DNA from: Candidatus Velamenicoccus archaeovorus
Lineage (GTDB): Bacteria > Omnitrophota > Gorgyraeia > Velamenicoccales > Velamenicoccaceae
Assembly: GCF_004102945.1 (NCBI RefSeq)
Contig: NZ_CP019384.1
Coordinates: forward strand, 1,170,001 to 1,202,000
Length of the DNA: 32,000 nt
Direction: 5' to 3'
A program made the position numbers and the translations under genes. Positions 1,427-32,000 of the stretch are shown here, one piece after another. Each line of letters opens with the position of its first letter. Within the stretch, counting starts at the first letter, position 1. The notes under the pieces were generated by a model that was given only the letters and a program-made list of their open reading frames with translations, was not told where the DNA came from and did no database searches.

Positions 1427-1455
1427 ATGTTAGACGAAAAATACGCCCGCGTCAA
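1427..1455 (-). promoter_or_regulatory. Candidate sigma70-type promoter for argC (TTGACG-N17-TAACAT)
   Basis: Minus strand reads TTGACGcgggcgtatttttcgtcTAACAT, about 100 nt upstream of the argC ATG. Confidence 0.4.
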
Positions 1456-1510: not shown

Positions 1511-1690
1511 CACCCCGCGCTTATCGGCACCTGGCCCTTGTAAGGAATCGGGCCAGTGTTCGCCTTTCTGGCGAAGAATGGCGCGGGTAGCGCACGAAGC
1601 GCACGCTTGCTCTTCCTTTTGAGCAAGGCGTGTCGTGCTTTCTGCAAACACCCGGCCCAAGCGGAGGGGCCGGTGTGCCGCCTTCTGCAC
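1511..1690. ncRNA. Unclassified structured element, copy 1 (74-nt three-way-junction core at 1514-1587 plus a roughly 93-nt variable extension); strand unresolved
   Basis: Core differs at 8 of 74 positions from 31520-31593. P1 is CCCGCGC/GCGCGGG. P2 is CTGGCCC/GGGCCAG. P3 is TTCGCC/GGCGAA. Substitutions between the copies are compensatory or wobble. Confidence 0.55.
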
Positions 1691-1720
1691 AAAAAAAATC
1701 CGCCGGTTTTCTCCGGCGGA
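1691..1720 (-). terminator. Rho-independent terminator after rpsI
   Basis: 8-bp GC-rich stem TCCGCCGG/CCGGCGGA (1699-1706 / 1713-1720), followed on the minus strand by an 8-nt T-tract (1691-1698). Lies 27 nt after the rpsI stop. Confidence 0.75.
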
Positions 1721-1746
1721 TCCTTGAAGCCTCTGTCAAAAAGCGC

Positions 1747-2823: not shown

Positions 2824-4394
2824 CATTTTTTTCTTCCAAGGAACCCCACCTTGTCCTCCGGTACCAAAAGCCCCGCAAAAGCCAAAACCAAGAACACCAG
2901 ACACGCCCAAAAGGGCACGGTGGCCGGGATCACCCGTTCCTGACACACAGCGGACGGATTGACCAAAAGATAGGCTATCTGTGTTTCCCCGGCGACCTGG
3001 AGGCCGTAGCGGGCGGCCGCCAGCGACAGATACCGAAGCCCTTCGCCGTCCACGTCCTTGAACCAAAGCACGGCGTGGGCATAGGCGACGGGATCGAAAT
3101 CGCGGAAAGGCCGGACCTCGGCAAGCATAGCCGTGGATGTCGCGCGATGGCTCAAAACCGCCACCATCCCTCCCGCATAGTCATAATTCGAAAAGATGAT
3201 CTGCCTCTCCGAAGACAGCTCCTTGACCATCCAAACACACTGACCGATCCACTTGGGATAGTAGATTGTCGTCGCCTTGACGCCGGGATCATTGGCATCA
3301 AGACCCATCCATATCATGGCCGGCGTTTCGCAGATCTTCCAGCTCCGCTCCTCCGGCTTCGGGCTCCAGTTATATTGAAAGCCGAACACCTGAAAAACCA
3401 ACACCATCACGGCCATGGCCGTCGCCTGATAGACCCTCGGCGCCTTCGCCAGGAAACGCGTGACGATCTCATTGACCGCCAGGGCCGCATAGAAACACCA
3501 CAGGAACAAACCCTGCCCCGAGATCAGACGGCTGCGATGCGTCCAGAAAAGAGAAAACATGACGCTGGCCAGGATCATAAAAAACTGACAGTCTTTTTTT
3601 CTGCGCCAGGCAAACACGACCCCCGCGACCACGAATAACGTCAATACCGTCGGGATTGCCAAGTAATAAAAATCGGGCGGCTTGACAAGGCGGACATACG
3701 CCAGGTAACGGGCCTGATGATAGAGGATCGGAAAGCTCGGGATCAAAGTCGCGGCAGCGATCCGCCAGATCATCTGGCGTTTCTGACGCTCCGGGATGGT
3801 GTATAAAAGAAGCGCTGCCAGAAACAGCCAAGGCACCAAGCTGTGCGCATAAAAAGCTAAGGTCAACAGCACGCAGGCACGCAGAGGCCTATTCTGCATC
3901 ACGGCGCCATAGCACAATAATCCCAGGCCGAAGGCCAGGCTGAAAGGGATATTGTTGATGACGGCCGTACAGAGCGAGGTGGCGCTGAGCGCGAAAAACA
4001 AAAACCAGAAAGCAGCCAAAGAACCGAGGGCACGGCGGATCACCGACCAGCCGCAATAAAGAAACCAGGGGTAAATCAGGACGTCAGAAAGCCTGGCGAC
4101 GCTGATCAAGTCAAGGCCGGCGCGGTAAAGCACAAGCTGCAGGATATGCAAAAGCGGCGGATACACATGCGGCCGGCCGAACGGGGCGTATTCCCAAAAA
4201 GCATGCCCCACCCACCCTCCTGCATCCCGAAACCCCTGCACAACGGAAAGATGATAATAGCCGTCCAGAAAAAGCGGGAAACGAAACCAACTGAACGCCT
4301 GGAACATGACGACGGCCAGAAAAATGACACCCGAATAAAAATCCCAGCGCGGGACATTCCAGGATCCAGACAAAGAAAATTTTCCTCTATGCAT
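2820..4394 (-). CDS. Large polytopic membrane protein with a C-terminal soluble domain (possibly GT-C/ArnT-PMT-like glycosyltransferase; function uncertain)
   Basis: 541-aa track ORF with many hydrophobic segments in the first ~380 aa and a hydrophilic tail. Start moved to MHRGKF (ATG at 4394), giving an 8-nt overlap with truA instead of 59 nt. Confidence 0.7.
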   Translation of the reverse strand: MHRGKFSLSGSWNVPRWDFYSGVIFLAVVMFQAFSWFRFPLFLDGYYHLSVVQGFRDAGGWVGHAFWEYAPFGRPHVYPPLLHILQLVLYRAGLDLISVARLSDVLIYPWFLYCGWSVIRRALGSLAAFWFLFFALSATSLCTAVINNIPFSLAFGLGLLCYGAVMQNRPLRACVLLTLAFYAHSLVPWLFLAALLLYTIPERQKRQMIWRIAAATLIPSFPILYHQARYLAYVRLVKPPDFYYLAIPTVLTLFVVAGVVFAWRRKKDCQFFMILASVMFSLFWTHRSRLISGQGLFLWCFYAALAVNEIVTRFLAKAPRVYQATAMAVMVLVFQVFGFQYNWSPKPEERSWKICETPAMIWMGLDANDPGVKATTIYYPKWIGQCVWMVKELSSERQIIFSNYDYAGGMVAVLSHRATSTAMLAEVRPFRDFDPVAYAHAVLWFKDVDGEGLRYLSLAAARYGLQVAGETQIAYLLVNPSAVCQERVIPATVPFWACLVFLVLAFAGLLVPEDKVGFLGRKKC

Positions 4395-8002: not shown

Positions 8003-8192
8003 TAATTTCGTCCTTTTTTAGGTTTTTTCTATCGAAATTAACTCCGAAGCGTGCTTAATGAAATTTAAGACAAGGTTTATGGCCTAGAACCCCGCGGGTA
8101 TGCCCGCGGGGTGACGTCCCTTCCGCCATTTATCTTGGGCATAGCCTCGCCCGCCGCAGGTGGGCAGGGAATTCTGGCTATGGGATTAAATT

Positions 8193-10028: not shown

Positions 10029-10106
10029 GTTATAGCGTTATAGAGTTATAGCGTTATGGAGTCATAGCGTTTACACAATAACTCTATAACCCTATAACGC
10101 AATAAC
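10029..10106. repeat. Array of 8-nt GTTATAGN units and their complements, forming a ~29-bp imperfect hairpin between fabF and leuC
   Basis: Reads gttatagc gttataga gttatagc gttatgga gtcatagc gtttacac | aataactc tataaccc tataacgc aataac. Positions 10029-10057 pair with 10078-10106 with 3 mismatches by hand. Confidence 0.7.
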
Positions 10107-10111
10107 GAATT

Positions 10112-11353
10112 CTAACCCTTGAATTCTTTTGCGACGACAGTCGCATTATGGCCGCCGAAACCCAAGGCGTTCGACATGGTCGTCTTGATCTTGAGCCCCC
10201 TGGCCTTGTTGGGCGTATAATCCAGGTCGCAATCCGGATCCTTATTCTCCAGGTTGATCGTCGGAGGCACAACGCTATGCTTCATCGTCAGGCAGCAGAC
10301 GATAAACTCCACGCCGCCGGCGGCCCCCAAGAGGTGGCCGGTCATCGATTTGGTCGAGCTGATGGCAACCTTGTGGACATGATCCCCGAACGCCTTTTTC
10401 ATGGCCAGGGTCTCGATCTTATCATTCAACAGCGTGGATGTGCCGTGGGCATTGATATAATCGATGTTCTCCGGTTTCAACCCCGCATCTTTCAAAGACG
10501 CACGCATGGCTCGGACACAGCCGTCGCCCGAAGGATCCGGCGCCGTAATATGATAGGCATCTCCTGACATGCCGTAACCCGCCACCTCACAGTAAATCCT
10601 GGCATTGCGTTTCAGGGCGTGTTCCATCTCCTCTAGAATAACAAGGCCTGACCCCTCCCCCATGACAAACCCATCGCGTTCTTTGTCAAAAGGCCGGGAG
10701 GCCCTCTGGGGTTCGTCATTGCGGCACGAGAGACTCTTCAAAGCGCAAAAACCGCCGATCCCCATAGGCGTGACCGCGCCTTCAGTCCCACCGGCGATCA
10801 TGACGTCCGCATCGCCGTACTGAATGATCCGCATCGCATCGCCGATGGCATGGTTGCCTGTCGCACACGCAGTGGCGACACAGCTATTGGGTCCCTTGAA
10901 ACCAAACTTCATAGAAACATGCCCCGACGCTTCATTGACAATCAGCATGGGGATCAAAAACGGCGTCAACCGGGAAGGTCCGCGTTCAAGCAGAATCTTA
11001 TGCTGTTCCTCGATGATCCTCAGGGATCCGATACCGGAACCGATCAAAACACCGCAACGTTCCAGGTCCAGCTTCGCAAGATCGAACCCCGCGTCGGCAA
11101 CCGCCTCGACGGCGGCGGCCATGGCATAATGCACGAACTTTTCGGTATGCTTGACCTCTTTCTTACCCATGAAAATCTCAGGATCAAAATTCTTCACCTG
11201 ACCGGCGATCCTGGCATCATAATCGGTAGGGTCAAAATACGTAATCGTATCGACCCCGCTGACACCGGTCTTCAACCCCTCCCAGAATTCCGCGACGTTG
11301 TTTCCCAGGGGCGTTACAGCTCCCAAACCTGTCACAACGACTCTACGTCTCAT
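10112..11353 (-). CDS. fabF: 3-oxoacyl-ACP synthase II
   Basis: 413 aa. MRRRVVVTGLGAVTPLGN..., ATACATG (active Cys), HGTST and GFGGHNA motifs. Confidence 0.93.
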   Translation of the reverse strand: MRRRVVVTGLGAVTPLGNNVAEFWEGLKTGVSGVDTITYFDPTDYDARIAGQVKNFDPEIFMGKKEVKHTEKFVHYAMAAAVEAVADAGFDLAKLDLERCGVLIGSGIGSLRIIEEQHKILLERGPSRLTPFLIPMLIVNEASGHVSMKFGFKGPNSCVATACATGNHAIGDAMRIIQYGDADVMIAGGTEGAVTPMGIGGFCALKSLSCRNDEPQRASRPFDKERDGFVMGEGSGLVILEEMEHALKRNARIYCEVAGYGMSGDAYHITAPDPSGDGCVRAMRASLKDAGLKPENIDYINAHGTSTLLNDKIETLAMKKAFGDHVHKVAISSTKSMTGHLLGAAGGVEFIVCCLTMKHSVVPPTINLENKDPDCDLDYTPNKARGLKIKTTMSNALGFGGHNATVVAKEFKG

Positions 11354-19019: not shown

Positions 19020-19235
19020 TCAGTCGACAGCCAAAACCGCCCTTGGATCCCAAAACATCGAACCGAAAGAAGCCTTTTTTATGGCTTCTTCGTACTGCCG
19101 CTGCGTGATCTCGCCGATAATCATCCTGGCTTGAAGTCTCACCCTGGTCACGGCGACCGCCTTCTGCACGCGGCCGCTGTACACAAACAACAGAAGCCCC
19201 GCAATCACAATGACGCTAAAGACAACTCGTTTCAT
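19020..19235 (-). CDS. Small membrane-anchored hypothetical protein (71 aa)
   Basis: N-terminal TM segment VVFSVIVIAGLLLFVY. Strong SD AGGAGG 5 nt upstream. ATGA overlap with the preceding small ORF. Confidence 0.5.
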   Translation of the reverse strand: MKRVVFSVIVIAGLLLFVYSGRVQKAVAVTRVRLQARMIIGEITQRQYEEAIKKASFGSMFWDPRAVLAVD

Positions 19236-25075: not shown

Positions 25076-25550
25076 AAAATTTGCGGAGCAAATTTTGATT
25101 CTGAGGCAACCTTGATTTTTTATCAAGGCCGAAGAATCTTTCTTGAGATGATCCTTCGTTCCTCAGGATCATTGTGTTTTTTCTCTGAAAAAACACAATG
25201 ACAATTCTTATCAGCTTTTCTCGAAAAGCGTCGATTCTTCTCCATCAAAAAGACAAAAAAGCGGTCAAGCCGATCGACAATTAGTATCCTTTAAGCTTAA
25301 ATCCTTGACGGATCTTACACTTAGGACCTATTGACCCGGTAGTCTTCCGGGTGTCTATGTCCGTGTTGCCACGAACGGGAAGTCTATTCTTTGGGCGAGC
25401 TTGGCGCTTATATGCCTTCAGCGCTTATCTCTTCCGAACATGACTACCCAGCCCTTGCCCTTGGCAGGACAGCTGGAACACCAGAGGTTCGTTTGTCCTG
25501 GTCCTCTCGTACTAAGGACAACTCCCATCAAACTTCCTTGCGCCCACACT

Positions 25551-25588
<38 letters not shown>

Positions 25589-26239
25589 ACTCACGTACCC
25601 TTTTAACCGGCGAACAGCCGGACCCTTGGGACCTTCTCCAGCCCCAGGATAGGATGAGCCGACATCGAGGTGCCAAACCGCGCTGTCGATATGAACTCTC
25701 GAGCGCGATAAGCCTGTTATCCCCAGAGTACCTTTTATTTGTTGAGCGATACCAATCCCACTATCTAGTACCGGATCACTAAGCCCTGCTTTCGCATCTG
25801 TTCTCCCTATCGGGATCACAGTCAACCTACCATATGCCTTTACACTCAACAGACGATTGCCGACCGTCTTGAGGTAAGCTTTGGGCTCCGCCGTTATATT
25901 TTAGGAGGAAACCGCCCCAGTCAAACTCCCCGTCTGGCAATGTTCCTTCGCCGGATTCACGGCAGAAGGTTAGAATCTTAATACAATAAGGGTGGTATTT
26001 CACCGACGACTCCATCCGGGCTAACGCCCGGACTTCAAAGTCTCCCACCTATCCTACACAGATCGGATCAAAATTCAATACCAGAGTAGAGTAAAGGTTC
26101 CGGGGTCTTTTCGTCCAAGTGCGGGTAGACAGCGTCTTCACTGTCACCACAATTTCGCCGAGTCCCTCGTTGAGACAGCGCTCAAGTTGTTACACCATTC
26201 GTGCGCGTGGGAACTTACCCCACAAGGAATTTCGCTACC

Positions 26240-26794
26240 TTAGGACCGTTCGTTTGTGTTAACTTCCGATTTCTCGGAAGACCGGACTATATCATCGGAC
26301 GATAACTTCTGATCGTCTGTCTGGCGTATAGTCTCTGAGGATTCCTGATATTTCACCAGTATTTCAGCTTCGCTATACTTGCGCTTGCCACCGTCGTTCA
26401 TTTCTCTTCTGATCTCAAGAATCTTTCGAATACCGCTACTCTTAAGATGTTCCCCCTTCTTTATCATTTCTGCCAGTTCGCAGAATTTCGCAAAATCCCG
26501 TTTTTTCTTTGCAGAAAGAAAACGGAATCGCTTAAAGAAAGGAATCACATCCTCACAGATTGCCCTAAAGTTATTCACTTCAAAATACCAAACACCATCG
26601 GGGCGGCTTCGTAACGTTCCGCAACCTAAATGATGCTTGAACAATGCAAGGATAACTTTGTCTTTCTGGGAGATGTTGAAACAAAGAGAAACTTTCCACG
26701 GTGACTTGTAGTCTTGCCGTTGTCTGAAGGATATATTAAAACTTCCTTCTCCGTCGGCAAAACCCGCCAAGTAGTAGCCGATTTCTGGTTTCAT
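26240..26794 (-). CDS. LAGLIDADG homing endonuclease (single-motif, I-CreI/I-CeuI-like), intron-encoded
   Basis: MKPEIGYYLAGFADGEGSFNISF... SD GAAGGAGG. The ORF runs to the 3' splice site and ends at a TAA formed by exon sequence (last 11 nt, 26250-26240, are exon). Confidence 0.88.
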   Translation of the reverse strand: MKPEIGYYLAGFADGEGSFNISFRQRQDYKSPWKVSLCFNISQKDKVILALFKHHLGCGTLRSRPDGVWYFEVNNFRAICEDVIPFFKRFRFLSAKKKRDFAKFCELAEMIKKGEHLKSSGIRKILEIRREMNDGGKRKYSEAEILVKYQESSETIRQTDDQKLSSDDIVRSSEKSEVNTNERS

Positions 26795-26958
26795 AAAGAC
26801 CTCCTTCTTCAGGTCTTTCCTGCTGATTGTCCCTATTCAACAGATTGTCACATTTCACCTTGAAGATGAAAGTACTGTTGACTTAACGGGATTTTCCAGC
26901 ATATAGCCAGATTTTACAACTACTGTGTGTCCCGGAACTTCACGGGATGGTCCAAACA
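26251..26958 (-). mobile_element. Group I intron inserted after the nucleotide homologous to E. coli 23S U1917 (helix 69 loop)
   Basis: - Exon junction is GGCCGUAACUAU|AACGGUCCUAAGG.
- The 5' exon ends in U, and the intron GUAGUU can pair with AACUAU, giving a U-G pair at the splice site.
- The intron ends in G.
- P6-like: GUCAACAG...CUGUUGA.
- P7-P8-P7'-like: AGAGACUAUAC...GAUAUAGUCCGG, close to the Tetrahymena ACAGACUAAAU...AGAUAUAGUCGGAC.
- P9-like: CUUCCGA-GAAA-UCGGAAG. Confidence 0.85.
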
Positions 26959-29119
26959 ATAGTTACGGCCGCCGTTCACTGGGGCTTCGGTTCGAAGCTT
27001 CTCCCCTTGCGGGGATAACCTCTCTCCTTAACCTTCCAGCACCGGGCAGGTGTCACACCCTATACGTCCTCTTTCGAGTTTGCAGAGTGCTTGGTTTTTG
27101 CTAAACAGTCACCCGAGCCACTTCATTGAAACCCTGCCATGCTTCATCCGTAAAGGACTACACATCGCAAGGCACCCCTTATTGCTAACTTACGGGGCTA
27201 GATTGCCGAGTTCCTTAACGAGGGTTCTCTCGAGGGCCTTACCATATTTTGGAGGTCTACCTGTGTCGGATTGCGGTACGATTGGCCAAGAACTCCCTTG
27301 ATGAATTTTCTCGGCAGCGTGGTTTAAGATCACTTCGGCCTTTCCGTAGATCGGCCTCGCATTCGCCTCTCATCCTGCCCTTGCGGACAGGACTACGAGC
27401 TTAGACGGACACATCCAACAGTCCGCTGACCCCAACCTCCTGCGTCAACATCAAGGTGATAACGCCCTTGACCAGTTCCGGAATATTAACCGGATTTCCA
27501 TCGCCTACGCGTTCAACAGCCTCGGCTTAGGATCGACTCACCCTGGGCGGATTAACCTTCCCCAGGAAACCTTAGACTTTCGGCCTCACGGTTTCTCGCC
27601 GTGATTTTCGCTACTCATACCGACATAATCACTACTGCTTCGTCCAGTGGTCCTCTCGATCCACCTTCAACCTACAACAGTACGCTCCTCTACCAAACGT
27701 TCCGGCACGCAGGCCGAAACATTTCCGCAGTTTCGGTAATAGGCTTGAGCCCCGATTATCTTGGGCGCAGGGCAACTCGACCAGTGAGCTGTTACGCACT
27801 CTTTAAATGATGGCTGCCTCTGAGCCAACATCCTGGTTGTCCGTGTTGTCCCACATCCTTTACCACTTAGCCTATCCTTTGGGACCTTAACTGGCGGTCT
27901 GGGCTGTCTCCCTTTTGACAATGCAGCTTAGCCCGCACTGTCTGTCTCCTGAGATAAGAAACGATGATATTCGGAGTTTGGTTGGGTTTGGCAACCTGGT
28001 GGGGTCCCTAGCCCATTCAGCACTCTACCCTCATCGCTCATTGACTCAAGGCCGTCCCTAAAGACGTTTCGAGGAGAACCAGCTATTACTGAGTTTGATT
28101 AGCCTTTCACTCCGACCCACAGCTCATCCCGGACTTTTTCAACAGTCATGGGTTCGTACCTCCATCTGCCTTTCGGCAGACTTCGCACTGGCCATGGGTA
28201 GATCACTCAGCTTCGGGTCTATACCAGCAAACTTGTCGCCCTATTCGGACTCGGTTTCCCTGCGCCTCCTCCCCTTAGAAAGGATTAAGCTTGCTTACTA
28301 GTATAACTCGCCGGTTCATTATGCAAAAGGCACGCCGTAACCCGTTCTCTCGCTTGCGCAAGAGCATAGGGCTCCGACCGCTTGTAAGCCTATGAATTCA
28401 GGTTCTATTTCACTCCCCTCCCGGGGTTCTTTTCAACTTTCCCTCACGGTACTTGTCCACTATCGGTCCAGTTCTAGTATTTAGCCTTACCCTGTGGTCA
28501 GGGCGGATTCCTACGGGATTCCACGTGCCCCGTAGTACTTGGGATACCATCCCAGAGAGATCCTTGCTTTTCGCATACGGGGCTTTCACCCTCTTTGGCA
28601 GACCATTCCAGGTCTTTCTGCTAAACAAGAATTTTGTAACTCTCCGACGGACCTGCATGTCCGTCCGGATAGTCCCACAACTTCCCGATGACAACGCATG
28701 CAGACTATTGCGTCACCGGGATTTAGGCTTTTCCCGCTTCGCTCGCCGCTACTAAGGGAATACCATGCGGTTTCTTTTCCTCGGGGTACTGAGATGTTTC
28801 ACTTCCCCCGGTTTGGCTCATCCTCCGCTATTTGATTTACGGAGATGTTTCCTGACATGACTCAGGAAGGGTTGCCCCATTCGGAAACCCTGGGATCAAA
28901 GCCTGTTTGCGACTCCCCCAGGAGTATCGCCGCTTACCACGTCCTTCTTCGCCTGAACTGACCAAGTCATTCCTCATAGGCTCTTTGTAGCTTGACCACA
29001 TTAATGGTCTTCGCCGGGCCTTAACGGCCCGGCAGTATGAGAGAATTTCTCGACGTTGCGTCCCGAACGGCGCCAGAGGCGCTCTTCGGGATGCACTTTT
29101 CGAAAAAAACCGATAAGAA

Positions 29120-29771: not shown

Positions 29772-31365
<1,594 letters not shown>

Positions 31366-31410
31366 AAAAAACGGTTGTTGACTTTTTACGGTCAACGACT
31401 TCTTGGCTAT

Positions 31411-31422
31411 TTATCAAAGAAC
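31411..31422 (-). promoter_or_regulatory. boxA-like antitermination element in the 16S leader, preceded by a boxB-like hairpin
   Basis: Minus strand reads UAUCGC-GCAA-GCGAUA (hairpin), then auucGUUCUUUGAUAA, about 45 nt upstream of mature 16S. Confidence 0.6.
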
Positions 31423-31500
31423 GAATATCGCTTGCGCGATAAGATATCTATTTTTCTCTATCAAACATCCGCCATCAAATCTTCGGCGGATTATTGTCTT

Positions 31501-31610
31501 CGCGCCTTCTGCGTCATACCCTGCGCTTATTGGCACCTGGTCCTTATAAGGAATTGGACCAGTGTTCGCCTTTCTGGCGAAGTATTGCGCGGGTGTTGCG
31601 CCTTCTGCGC
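31501..31610. ncRNA. Unclassified structured element, copy 2 (core 31520-31593), flanked by 12-nt direct repeats GCGCCTTCTGCG; strand unresolved
   Basis: See copy 1. P1 is CCTGCGC/GCGCGGG (U-G wobble only if read on the plus strand). P2 is CTGGTCC/GGACCAG. P3 is TTCGCC/GGCGAA. Direct repeats lie at 31502-31513 and 31598-31609. Confidence 0.55.
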
Positions 31611-31642
31611 AAATAAAAAAGGCATCGAGATGATGCCTTTTT
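31611..31642. terminator. Bidirectional intrinsic terminator between the upstream promoters and the 16S leader
   Basis: Reads AAATAAAAAA-GGCATC-gagat-GATGCC-TTTTT. A/T tracts on both sides extend the stem and give a U-tract in either orientation. Confidence 0.7.
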
Positions 31643-31787
31643 CGAAAAATCCAGCATCTCGACAAACAGAACTTTTGGTTATGTTCCCCTGCGCGGGGCC
31701 CTTCTGTCGGTCTTCAAATCTCTTGTCACCTTGGCGGCTTGCGCCAATCTGTAAAAGAATATTTCGCACCCTAAGGTGTAGCTGTAA

Positions 31788-31816
31788 GTTATATCAGAAC
31801 ACCCATAAAGTGTCAA
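31788..31816 (-). promoter_or_regulatory. Strong sigma70-type promoter with AT-rich UP-like element (TTGACA-N17-TATAAC), about 420 nt upstream of 16S
   Basis: Minus strand reads catttaaaatttttaaaataatccTTGACActttatgggtgttctgaTATAACttacagc. Confidence 0.6.
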
Positions 31817-31841: not shown

Positions 31842-31886
31842 GCACATAACTTATGTAATTCAAAGAATTACATAAGTTATGGGTGC
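31842..31886. promoter_or_regulatory. Large palindrome CATAACTTATGTAATTC-AAA-GAATTACATAAGTTATG between the two candidate promoters
   Basis: 17-bp perfect inverted repeat (31845-31861 / 31865-31881) with a 3-nt spacer. Extended by GCA/TGC across a 2-nt bulge. Confidence 0.6.
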
Positions 31887-31935: not shown

Positions 31936-31951
31936 GGATCTAATTCACGCC

Positions 31952-31983
31952 GTGACTTATGTTCATTGCATTCCATAAGTCAC
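31952..31983. promoter_or_regulatory. Palindrome GTGACTTATG-N12-CATAAGTCAC upstream of the distal promoter candidate
   Basis: 10-bp perfect inverted repeat (31952-31961 / 31974-31983). Member of the ACTTATG family. Confidence 0.5.
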
Positions 31984-32000
31984 ACGTTCATTAAAGAACG

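Follow-up and report, generated by a model that had tools for sequence, protein, structure and literature searches.

A probable composite member of a clade-specific family of intergenic mosaic hairpin repeats in Candidatus Velamenicoccus archaeovorus

A 77-nt repeat occupies two intergenic spacers

Candidatus Velamenicoccus archaeovorus is a predatory ultramicrobacterium of the Omnitrophota. We analyzed a 32-kb stretch of its chromosome (contig NZ_CP019384.1; here called the window) that carries argC (305-1327), rpsI (1747-2145), rplM, and an rRNA operon with 5S, 23S, tRNA-Ala, tRNA-Ile, and 16S genes (16S at 29775-31367), and we examined a 77-nt repeat found in the rpsI-argC spacer and again upstream of 16S. 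The genes near both copies are all on the minus strand. The ArgC protein encoded in the window is 100% identical to QAT17196.1 of this organism, and the ArgC homologues that we found belong to Omnitrophota without exception. Copy 1 lies between the rpsI intrinsic terminator and the argC promoter, and copy 2 has a terminator-like hairpin (31615-31643) on one side and the 16S boxB/boxA leader on the other; both contexts had been described in an initial annotation of this DNA and were borne out. The two loci contain the following features:

1427-1455, minus strand: argC promoter, TTGACG-17-TAACAT, kept in relatives without the hairpin array described below
1512-1588, no strand assigned: copy 1 of the 77-nt composite (module A), with stem P1 at 1514-1520/1581-1587
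1531-1537/1550-1556: P2 of copy 1, with a 12-nt loop; collared ACAC..GGTG on the minus strand
1559-1564/1570-1575: P3 of copy 1; loop TTTCT on the plus strand, AGAAA on the minus strand
1694-1725, minus strand: intrinsic terminator of rplM-rpsI, with stem, AGAAAA loop, and T-run
31410-31441, minus strand: boxB-like GNRA hairpin (31426-31441) and boxA-like CGTTCTTTGATAAA of the 16S leader
31518-31594, no strand assigned: copy 2 of the 77-nt composite, with P1 at 31520-31526/31587-31593, P2 at 31537-31562, and P3 at 31565-31581
31615-31643, minus strand: terminator-like hairpin flanked on either side by T-runs; in the rRNA sense, it precedes copy 2
31788-31816, minus strand: strong promoter, TTGACA-17-TATAAC, after an A/T-rich tract; conserved in UBA6210

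A repeat search of the window aligned 1512-1588 with 31518-31594 over 77 nt, ungapped and at 90% identity (8 differences; BLAST E value of about 1e-20). The initial annotation had counted the same eight differences in an ungapped 74-nt core; all of them fall within 1514-1587, and the search extended the repeat to 77 nt. It was also, as had been claimed, the only long non-rRNA repeat in the window, the remaining direct-repeat families being 27 to 31 nt long and 66 to 78% identical. In both copies, P1 encloses two hairpins, P2 (7 bp, 12-nt loop) and P3 (6 bp, 5-nt loop). This fold, likewise proposed at the outset, was recovered for both copies on either strand, with z scores of -3.9 to -5.0 relative to shuffled sequences. 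Several details given with it are also present in the sequence: the double C-G-to-T-A change in P2, the P1 change that makes a U-G wobble on the plus strand only, the CCTTCTGC motif, the extra 93-nt segment of copy 1 with its additional hairpins, and the 12-nt direct repeats GCGCCTTCTGCG around copy 2, located at 31502-31513 and 31599-31610. One detail was not sustained: covariation had been proposed for positions 3 and 12 of the P2 loop (G..C to A..T), and homologues from two relatives introduced below (L013 and L069) have A..C there.

The element had been matched to no known RNA, and the Rfam check agreed. A cmscan of the whole window gave no Rfam 15 family at its gathering score, and at E values up to 10 the best matches at the two loci scored ~25 bits against cutoffs of 97 to 229 and were driven by terminator hairpins. 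ARAGORN called no tRNA-like or transfer-messenger RNA gene. We considered a tRNA-derived origin, given the same length and the 7-bp closing stem, but rejected it because there are two internal arms only and no ARAGORN call. An attC site, a CRISPR, a retron RNA, and a guide RNA of the IS200/IS605 or IS110 type were likewise rejected, as no integrase, Cas, reverse transcriptase, TnpB, or recombinase gene is a neighbor. We found no account of this repeat family in Rfam 15, in a full-text literature search for intergenic hairpin repeats of Omnitrophota, or in the titles and abstracts of papers on Velamenicoccus.

Comparison of the two copies also raises the possibility of a small protein, or the remnant of a coding gene, in the minus-strand frame FARKANTGPIPYK[G/D]QVPISAG, which the initial annotation had listed as a confounder. 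Its count of 5 synonymous changes among 6 transitions between the window copies is correct and speaks for coding. The coding interpretation did not hold up, however: there is no start codon inside the block or at a conserved distance from it, stops fall in differing places, L069 has a frameshifting 2-nt insertion, nonsynonymous changes (T>A, K>T, A>M, and P>S) are present in other homologues, and the open reading frames (ORFs) extend through terminator hairpins. Moreover, none of 5.8 billion protein clusters shares three 5-residue words with the 63-amino-acid ORF. We regard a coding origin as extremely improbable.

The rpsI-argC spacer carries an array of oriented hairpin modules

Copy 1 is one member of a longer array in its spacer, and copy 2 is flanked by linkers of the same kind. 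The additional modules in the window are as follows:

1497-1509: degenerate palindrome GGCCCCTAGGGGC on the promoter side of module A; variable among relatives
1589-1607: small hairpin h1 (AGCGTGCG-ctt-CGTGCGCT on the minus strand), between module A and unit B
1602-1633: unit B, a collared hairpin in inverted orientation, with minus-strand loop AAAAGGAA; its reverse complement aligns with unit E and P2
1635-1646: linker GTGCTTTCTGCA (minus strand, TGCAGAAAGCAC)
1648-1676: unit C, collared hairpin ACAC-CCGGCCC-loop-GGGCCGG-TGT
1675-1690: terminator-proximal linker GTGCCGCCTTCTGCAC, where whole modules are gained or lost in relatives
31502-31513: linker L2, GCGCCTTCTGCG, the second of the 12-nt direct repeats
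31596-31612: linker hairpin L1, TTGCGC-CTTCT-GCGCAA; UBA6210 has the identical loop on a GCCCC/GGGGC stem

We wrote each array in gene-sense order, using T for the terminator, L for a linker, h for h1, and A for the 77-nt form. Units B to E are collared hairpins of the form (A)CAC-stem-loop-stem-G(G)TG, and L is stem-(C)AGAAR-stem, seen as YTTCTGC when the plus strand is read. The module orders are the following:

Window: T-L-C-L-B-h-A
L013 and L076: T-L-E-D-L-C-L-B-h-A
L069: T-L-C'-L-E-D-L-C-L-B-h-A
L072: T-L'-C-L-B-h-E-C-L-B-h-A

These lineages, whose ArgC proteins are 92 to 100% identical, differ by entire modules, and every breakpoint lies in a linker. The linker motif YTTCTGC occurs 6 times in the window versus 0.76 expected. 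The collar, which is (A)CAC ... G(G)TG(T) in all units, is asymmetric by one base; a symmetrical ACACC..GGTGT hairpin pattern matches nothing. Because the loops are asymmetric, each unit has an orientation. Unit E aligned with P2 better in the same orientation (score of 37) than inverted (24) and with B better inverted (37) than in the same orientation (19); C and D also aligned better inverted (36 versus 19). Matches to a covariance model of the repeat unit (R1, described below) run + - + - + along the L076 array. Metagenome contigs L017, L074, and L079 terminate inside arrays, and L073 has an N-gap at the rpsI-argC spacer; the family explains assembly breaks of this clade at that spacer.

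Two further observations concern repeats related to these by position or motif. Upstream of argC in a more distant relative (78% ArgC identity), tandem units of ~60 nt (ttaatgtacgattcagcgatatcccgcgaagtgaaacgaagcggggtgagcgac) occupy the position of the array (L004 1-330), and the contig ends within them; a distinct repeat family occupies the hot spot there. Within the window, the hairpin GCGGCCGC-gtgcagaag-GCGGTCGC (19153-19177) lies in a gap of 460 nt that separates two genes and carries the linker motif GTGCAGAAGGCGG; this hairpin may be the remnant of an isolated linker or part of a small unannotated ORF.

The junction is best read as a bipartite module nested in a second hairpin

P3 is a linker-type hairpin (TTCGCC-AGAAA-GGCGAA), and it is directly followed by P2, which is a collared hairpin (ACAC-TGGCCC...GGGCCA-GGTG). 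The same bipartite arrangement is found in L+C, in L+E, and in isolated modules between argD and argF of L072 and L001 (alignment A7). We built covariance model R1 of the bipartite module from five sequences (P3+P2, the L072 and L001 argD-argF modules, linker+C, and linker+E), and it identified about 30 strong instances (>30 bits) in 163 kb of Velamenicoccus-clade loci. At E values up to 1, all R1 matches lie in or beside intergenic spacers except for a weak one at L014 4969-5005 (14.2 bits; E value of 0.59). Module stems are 6 to 8 bp long, and loops are 5 to 13 nt long.

The outer stem of the junction has a counterpart in the arrays as well: unit E (ACACCCGCGC-AACTTCCTTGTAA-GCGCGGGGTGT) carries the stem of P1 together with the collar. 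L072 has a super-unit duplicated in tandem, and there E, with its 13-nt loop, and A, with its 63-nt insert, share the position after an identical left flank, gcgcttcgtgcgctacccgcgc. Removal of P3+P2 from A would leave a loop, CATTC|CCAATAA, that appears to resemble the ACTTCC|TTGTAA loop of E. From these sequence comparisons, the best reading of the junction is an E-type hairpin that holds a bipartite module in its loop, and the three-way junction would then appear because the P3+P2 unit sits within the loop of the collared hairpin P1; alternatively, E may be a deletion product of A. The headline of the initial annotation, a dedicated 74-nt junction RNA with compensatory substitutions, fits poorly with nested modules and with a total of only two compensatory pairs among nine copies.

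Modules are present or absent at four kinds of spacer

We scanned one genome per bacterial or archaeal species (185,579 species genomes), 241 million metagenome records, and viral contigs. Both DNA patterns used demanded an exact P3, and the requirement for TGTTCGCC missed the L072 variant (CGTTCGCC). With the P3-anchored pattern, the species genomes yielded seven loci, two of which were real: the rpsI-argC spacer of a relative with 96% ArgC identity (L013) and a site upstream of 16S in UBA6210 (L014). With a pattern tolerating P2 variation, the metagenomes yielded 57 loci, and again two were real (L017 and L069, both rpsI-argC spacers of close relatives). Two scans of viral contigs gave 0 loci. 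Protein-guided retrieval added the rpsI-argC spacers of L072, L074, and L076 to L079 (92 to 93% ArgC identity), one of them with a junction variant. The search for homologues in relatives that the initial annotation had suggested was thereby answered, with further copies recovered from species genomes and metagenomes.

Individual modules proved to be variable in both presence and orientation. The rpsI-argC spacer of L001 (82% ArgC identity) has no array, and an argD-argF module is present in L001, L072, and L074. In L075, whose ArgC protein is identical to that of L072, the ~46-nt argD-argF module is replaced by “CT,” and L076 has no argD-argF spacer whatsoever. The leuD-leuB spacer of L072 contains a module in the opposite orientation (3884-3932), that of L076 is a 43-nt spacer without a module, and that of the window contains other GC-rich hairpins (e.g., at 8089-8112). 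When the window and its relatives were pooled (~40 kb of chromosome sampled), modules were found in at least four kinds of spacer (rpsI-argC, rrn upstream, argD-argF, and leuD-leuB). We considered whether the 12-nt repeats around copy 2 represent a target-site duplication and rejected this, as they correspond to linkers L1 and L2 and are unequal in UBA6210 (GCCCCAGAAGGGGGC and GCCGCAGAAGGCGG). Comparison of filled and empty argD-argF sites likewise revealed no duplication.

The position of module A might suggest a regulatory or insulator site acting at the DNA level, i.e., an element that binds a protein or forms a cruciform and is placed between a terminator and the promoter that follows (that of the arg operon or of rRNA). 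Module A is always promoter-proximal, ~60 bp upstream of the argC -35 hexamer, and copy 2 is upstream of the 16S boxB/boxA leader. However, three relatives (L001, L004, and L007) keep the argC promoter and an ARG-box-like region yet are entirely without the element, no common promoter spacing is definable at the rrn locus, and single modules also occur within operons. We therefore consider a site of this type highly improbable.

Substitution patterns and transcription signals

Nine distinct copies of module A contain two compensatory pairs (P1 G-C to A-U in UBA6210 and P2 C-G to U-A in window copy 2), along with two C-to-U changes in P1, each of which leaves a wobble pair if the plus strand is read and a mismatch if the minus strand is read. 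In UBA6210, linker L2 has one outer pair that forms a wobble legal on the minus strand only. At fourfold-degenerate sites of argC, the window differs from L069 by 6.5% and from L013 by 9.0%, and the array of the window differs from that of L069 by about 7% (BLAST identity of 92.6% over 189 nt). Between the window and UBA6210, the rrn copy differs at 8 of 77 positions (10%), and the whole aligned rrn-upstream region differs by about 11%. Thus, the 77-nt core is not measurably slower-evolving than its flanks, and the rates are close to neutral. The hairpins are nonetheless maintained, an outcome that palindrome-templated repair can achieve without selection on an RNA.

The sole sigma-70-like promoter predicted beside copy 1 is that of argC itself, and no plus-strand promoter was predicted at either 77-nt locus. 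On the plus strand, the hairpin after copy 1 is without a T-tract, and copy 2 is followed by a hairpin with a T-run. With a core about as divergent as its flanks, no predicted promoter of its own, and a first copy without a plus-strand terminator, the element is hard to reconcile with the dedicated-RNA framing of the initial annotation.

These data bear on several forms of RNA function. In one, the copies would be plus-strand small RNA (sRNA) paralogues antisense to their neighbors, for example, a CsrB/RsmZ-type sponge with GGA loops and a strain-variable number of modules. CsrB and RsmZ resemble this family in having hairpin arrays with GGA loops, variable module number, and two paralogues, and two paralogues per genome are typical of such sRNAs. 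GGA is found in the plus-strand loops of P2 (UUAUAAGGAAUC), E (UUACAAGGAAGUU), and C (AAGCGGAG), and the loop of E resembles RUACARGGAUGU, the CsrA consensus obtained by in vitro selection (SELEX). The plus-strand hairpin and T-run after copy 2 and the two P1 wobbles, legal on the plus strand only, point in the same direction, but finding both wobbles on one strand has a chance expectation of 1 in 4. Unlike the loops of CsrB and RsmZ, the GGA loops here are split between the strands (three or four on the plus strand and two on the minus strand), with B and D carrying GGA on the other strand, such that the motif tracks unit orientation and not one transcript. The short rrn copy has a single loop GGA only, and the missing plus-strand promoters and the missing T-tract after copy 1 also argue against this form of RNA, which we find very doubtful.

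A cis-acting structured RNA on the minus strand would instead be part of the pre-rRNA leader and of rplM-rpsI read-through transcripts, serving as an exonuclease block or in processing or protein binding via its AGAAR loops. Consistent with this, AGAAR loops are on the sense strand at rpsI-argC, rrn, and argD-argF; the argD-argF module is inside an operon and so must be transcribed; and loops are kept while stems vary, as in L1 (GCGC versus GCCCC). In addition, the strong promoter and boxB/boxA-like elements upstream of copy 2 (31816-31750) could drive read-through of the terminator-like hairpin. Nevertheless, strong intrinsic terminators precede both 77-nt copies, the leuD-leuB module of L072 is oppositely oriented, unit orientation alternates within arrays, entire modules are dispensable among near-identical genomes, and the two P1 wobbles are mismatched on this strand. 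On balance, a cis-acting RNA seems quite unlikely.

The conservation of the loops would also fit recognition by an RNA-binding protein. The hairpin modules could be a platform for a loop-specific nucleic-acid-binding protein (recognizing the conserved AGAAR and CUUCCUU/AAGGAAG loops, whose stems vary freely), with module A, retained beside the arg and rRNA promoters, as a functional structured RNA exapted from the repeats; it would then serve ribosome-related transcripts as a leader or 3'-end element or act as a pair of sponge sRNAs. To us, this proposal is quite doubtful. Taken together, the readings that invoke a functional RNA are rather unlikely, and they retain weight because the loops are more conserved than the stems, because module A is a constant anchor, and because the strong promoter at 31816-31788, with boxB/boxA-like elements after it, may drive transcription of the rrn copy.

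Likeness to REP and BIME repeats

Interspersed palindromic repeats are well studied in Proteobacteria and Firmicutes, and the head of the repetitive extragenic palindromic (REP) consensus is GT[AG]G next to a palindrome. The elements most similar to those described here are REPs, bacterial interspersed mosaic elements (BIMEs), and REPINs of Enterobacteria and Pseudomonas, which are associated with REP-associated tyrosine transposases (RAYTs). REPs number tens to hundreds per genome, and the gene for the cognate RAYT, a Y1 transposase, has REPs on its flanks. As in those systems, the units are palindromes of 25 to 35 nt that are exclusively extragenic and lie after terminators or between cistrons; they form clusters of alternating orientation with short conserved linker motifs, as in Escherichia coli BIMEs and REP doublets; and unit number is strain variable, with inverted doublets (D-C and B-A). 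The differences are a collar of ACAC/GGTG in place of the GT[AG]G head, a bipartite unit with an obligatory AGAAR-loop mini-hairpin and the nesting of one unit in the loop of another, and the host phylum, Omnitrophota. With the GT[AG]G head absent, the family is not REP in the strict sense. BOX elements of Streptococcus pneumoniae (boxA-boxB(n)-boxC) are similarly modular intergenic mosaics that are noncoding and have variable internal modules and a stable structure, but there is no sequence relationship, the present family has no fixed A...C ends (module A being the sole constant end), and its orientation alternates. Miniature inverted-repeat transposable elements (MITEs) and Correia elements share small size, lack of coding capacity, and presence or absence at orthologous intergenic sites, which we found in comparisons of L072 with L075, L072 with L076, and L001 with the window; the P1 arms are readable as short terminal inverted repeats. 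Unlike MITEs, this family has no conserved target-site duplication and grows by modules.

We favor, as the probable interpretation, that the 77-nt junction is a composite member of a new clade-specific, REP/BIME-like family of interspersed intergenic mosaic hairpin repeats. Modular anatomy, nesting, alternating orientation, gain and loss of whole modules, and presence or absence at four spacers are what we observed. The initial annotation had offered an antisense sRNA, a leader module, an insulator or regulator site, and a MITE-like repeat as options, and the last of these comes nearest to the comparative data, which reveal modular, dispersed, indel-prone intergenic hairpins.

Several findings weigh against membership in a repeat family. 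No transposase or RAYT was detected among the 20 ORFs of the window scanned against Pfam. Changes in the stems keep pairing (two compensatory pairs and two wobbles legal on the plus strand), and the loop motifs AGAAR and CTTCCTT/AAGGAAG are more conserved than the stems. The 77-nt form is of low copy number, with one or two sites per genome and one match per metagenome-assembled genome in a narrow clade, and the patterns with exact P3 found it solely at the rpsI-argC and rrn-upstream sites. Finally, every argC array has module A as its fixed promoter-proximal member, and the rrn copy is retained in both the window and UBA6210.

In the favored interpretation of a REP/BIME-like family, the unit measures ~46 to 52 nt and comprises two hairpins when read on the gene-sense (window minus) strand. 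The first is short, its (C)AGAAR loop being conserved and its stem free to vary; the collared hairpin, (A)CAC-stem-loop-stem-G(G)TG, comes immediately after it. Units accumulate just downstream of an intrinsic terminator, in alternating orientation and joined by YTTCTGC linkers of 9 to 12 nt. Spread and contraction of the family would, we infer, take place at the DNA level, with several conceivable mechanisms: recombination that is unequal, or slippage, between the short linkers; repair templated on hairpins, a process that would also produce “compensatory” changes; and occasional seeding of new spacers by some hairpin-specific activity. Effects on the host would probably be incidental, with stem-loops in read-through or intercistronic RNA acting as 3' stabilizers or insulators.

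The family also has practical consequences. Nested repeat hairpins can be miscalled “multistem structured RNAs,” a caution for genome scans, and the variable-module locus is usable as a strain marker for Candidatus Velamenicoccus. Should an enzyme capable of moving the bipartite unit come to light, it would represent a new hairpin-targeting mobility system.

Other features of the window

Around the rRNA operon, 31400-31415 pairs (by eye) with CTTGGCTATTTAT in the 16S-tRNA spacer, a candidate 16S processing stem. The 31788-31816 promoter is followed on the minus strand by a boxB-like hairpin (31767-31778) and a boxA-like ATTCTTTTACA (31750-31760). Next comes a stretch of about 120 nt (31619-31740) in which the window and UBA6210 are about 96% identical; adjacent to it, a hairpin at 31731-31747 has a stem that differs compensatorily in UBA6210. 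The unit at 31612-31816 (minus strand; L014 6296-6500) ends at an intrinsic-terminator-like hairpin, has no Rfam match, and folds with a z score of -3.2; it is either an sRNA of ~170 nt or the first part of the rRNA leader. Palindromes at 31845-31881 and 31951-31984 (17-bp and 11-bp stems) share the core ACTTATG/CATAAGT just upstream of the strong promoter and could be operator-like sites or further repeats. The 23S rRNA gene (25261-28997) is 3,737 nt long compared with a 2,925-position model and contains a minus-strand ORF (26240-26794) with a LAGLIDADG homing-endonuclease domain (E value of 1.7e-19). The long gene and this ORF fit the group I intron that PMC13153191 reports for the 23S gene of Candidatus Velamenicoccus archaeovorus.

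Between rplM and rpsI (2146-2344), there is an insertion of ~198 nt with AGGTC on both sides and a 17-bp perfect hairpin (2212-2249), and it provides a new stop codon for rplM. At this site, L001 carries an insertion whose ends are homologous, and in L069, L072, and L076, rplM and rpsI are 1 nt apart. This looks like a separate MITE-like element. Lastly, an inverted repeat of GTTATAG(C/A)G iterations (10029-10098) occupies an 89-nt spacer upstream of a beta-ketoacyl-ACP synthase gene (10112-11353) and may be an operator for a fatty-acid-synthesis regulator.

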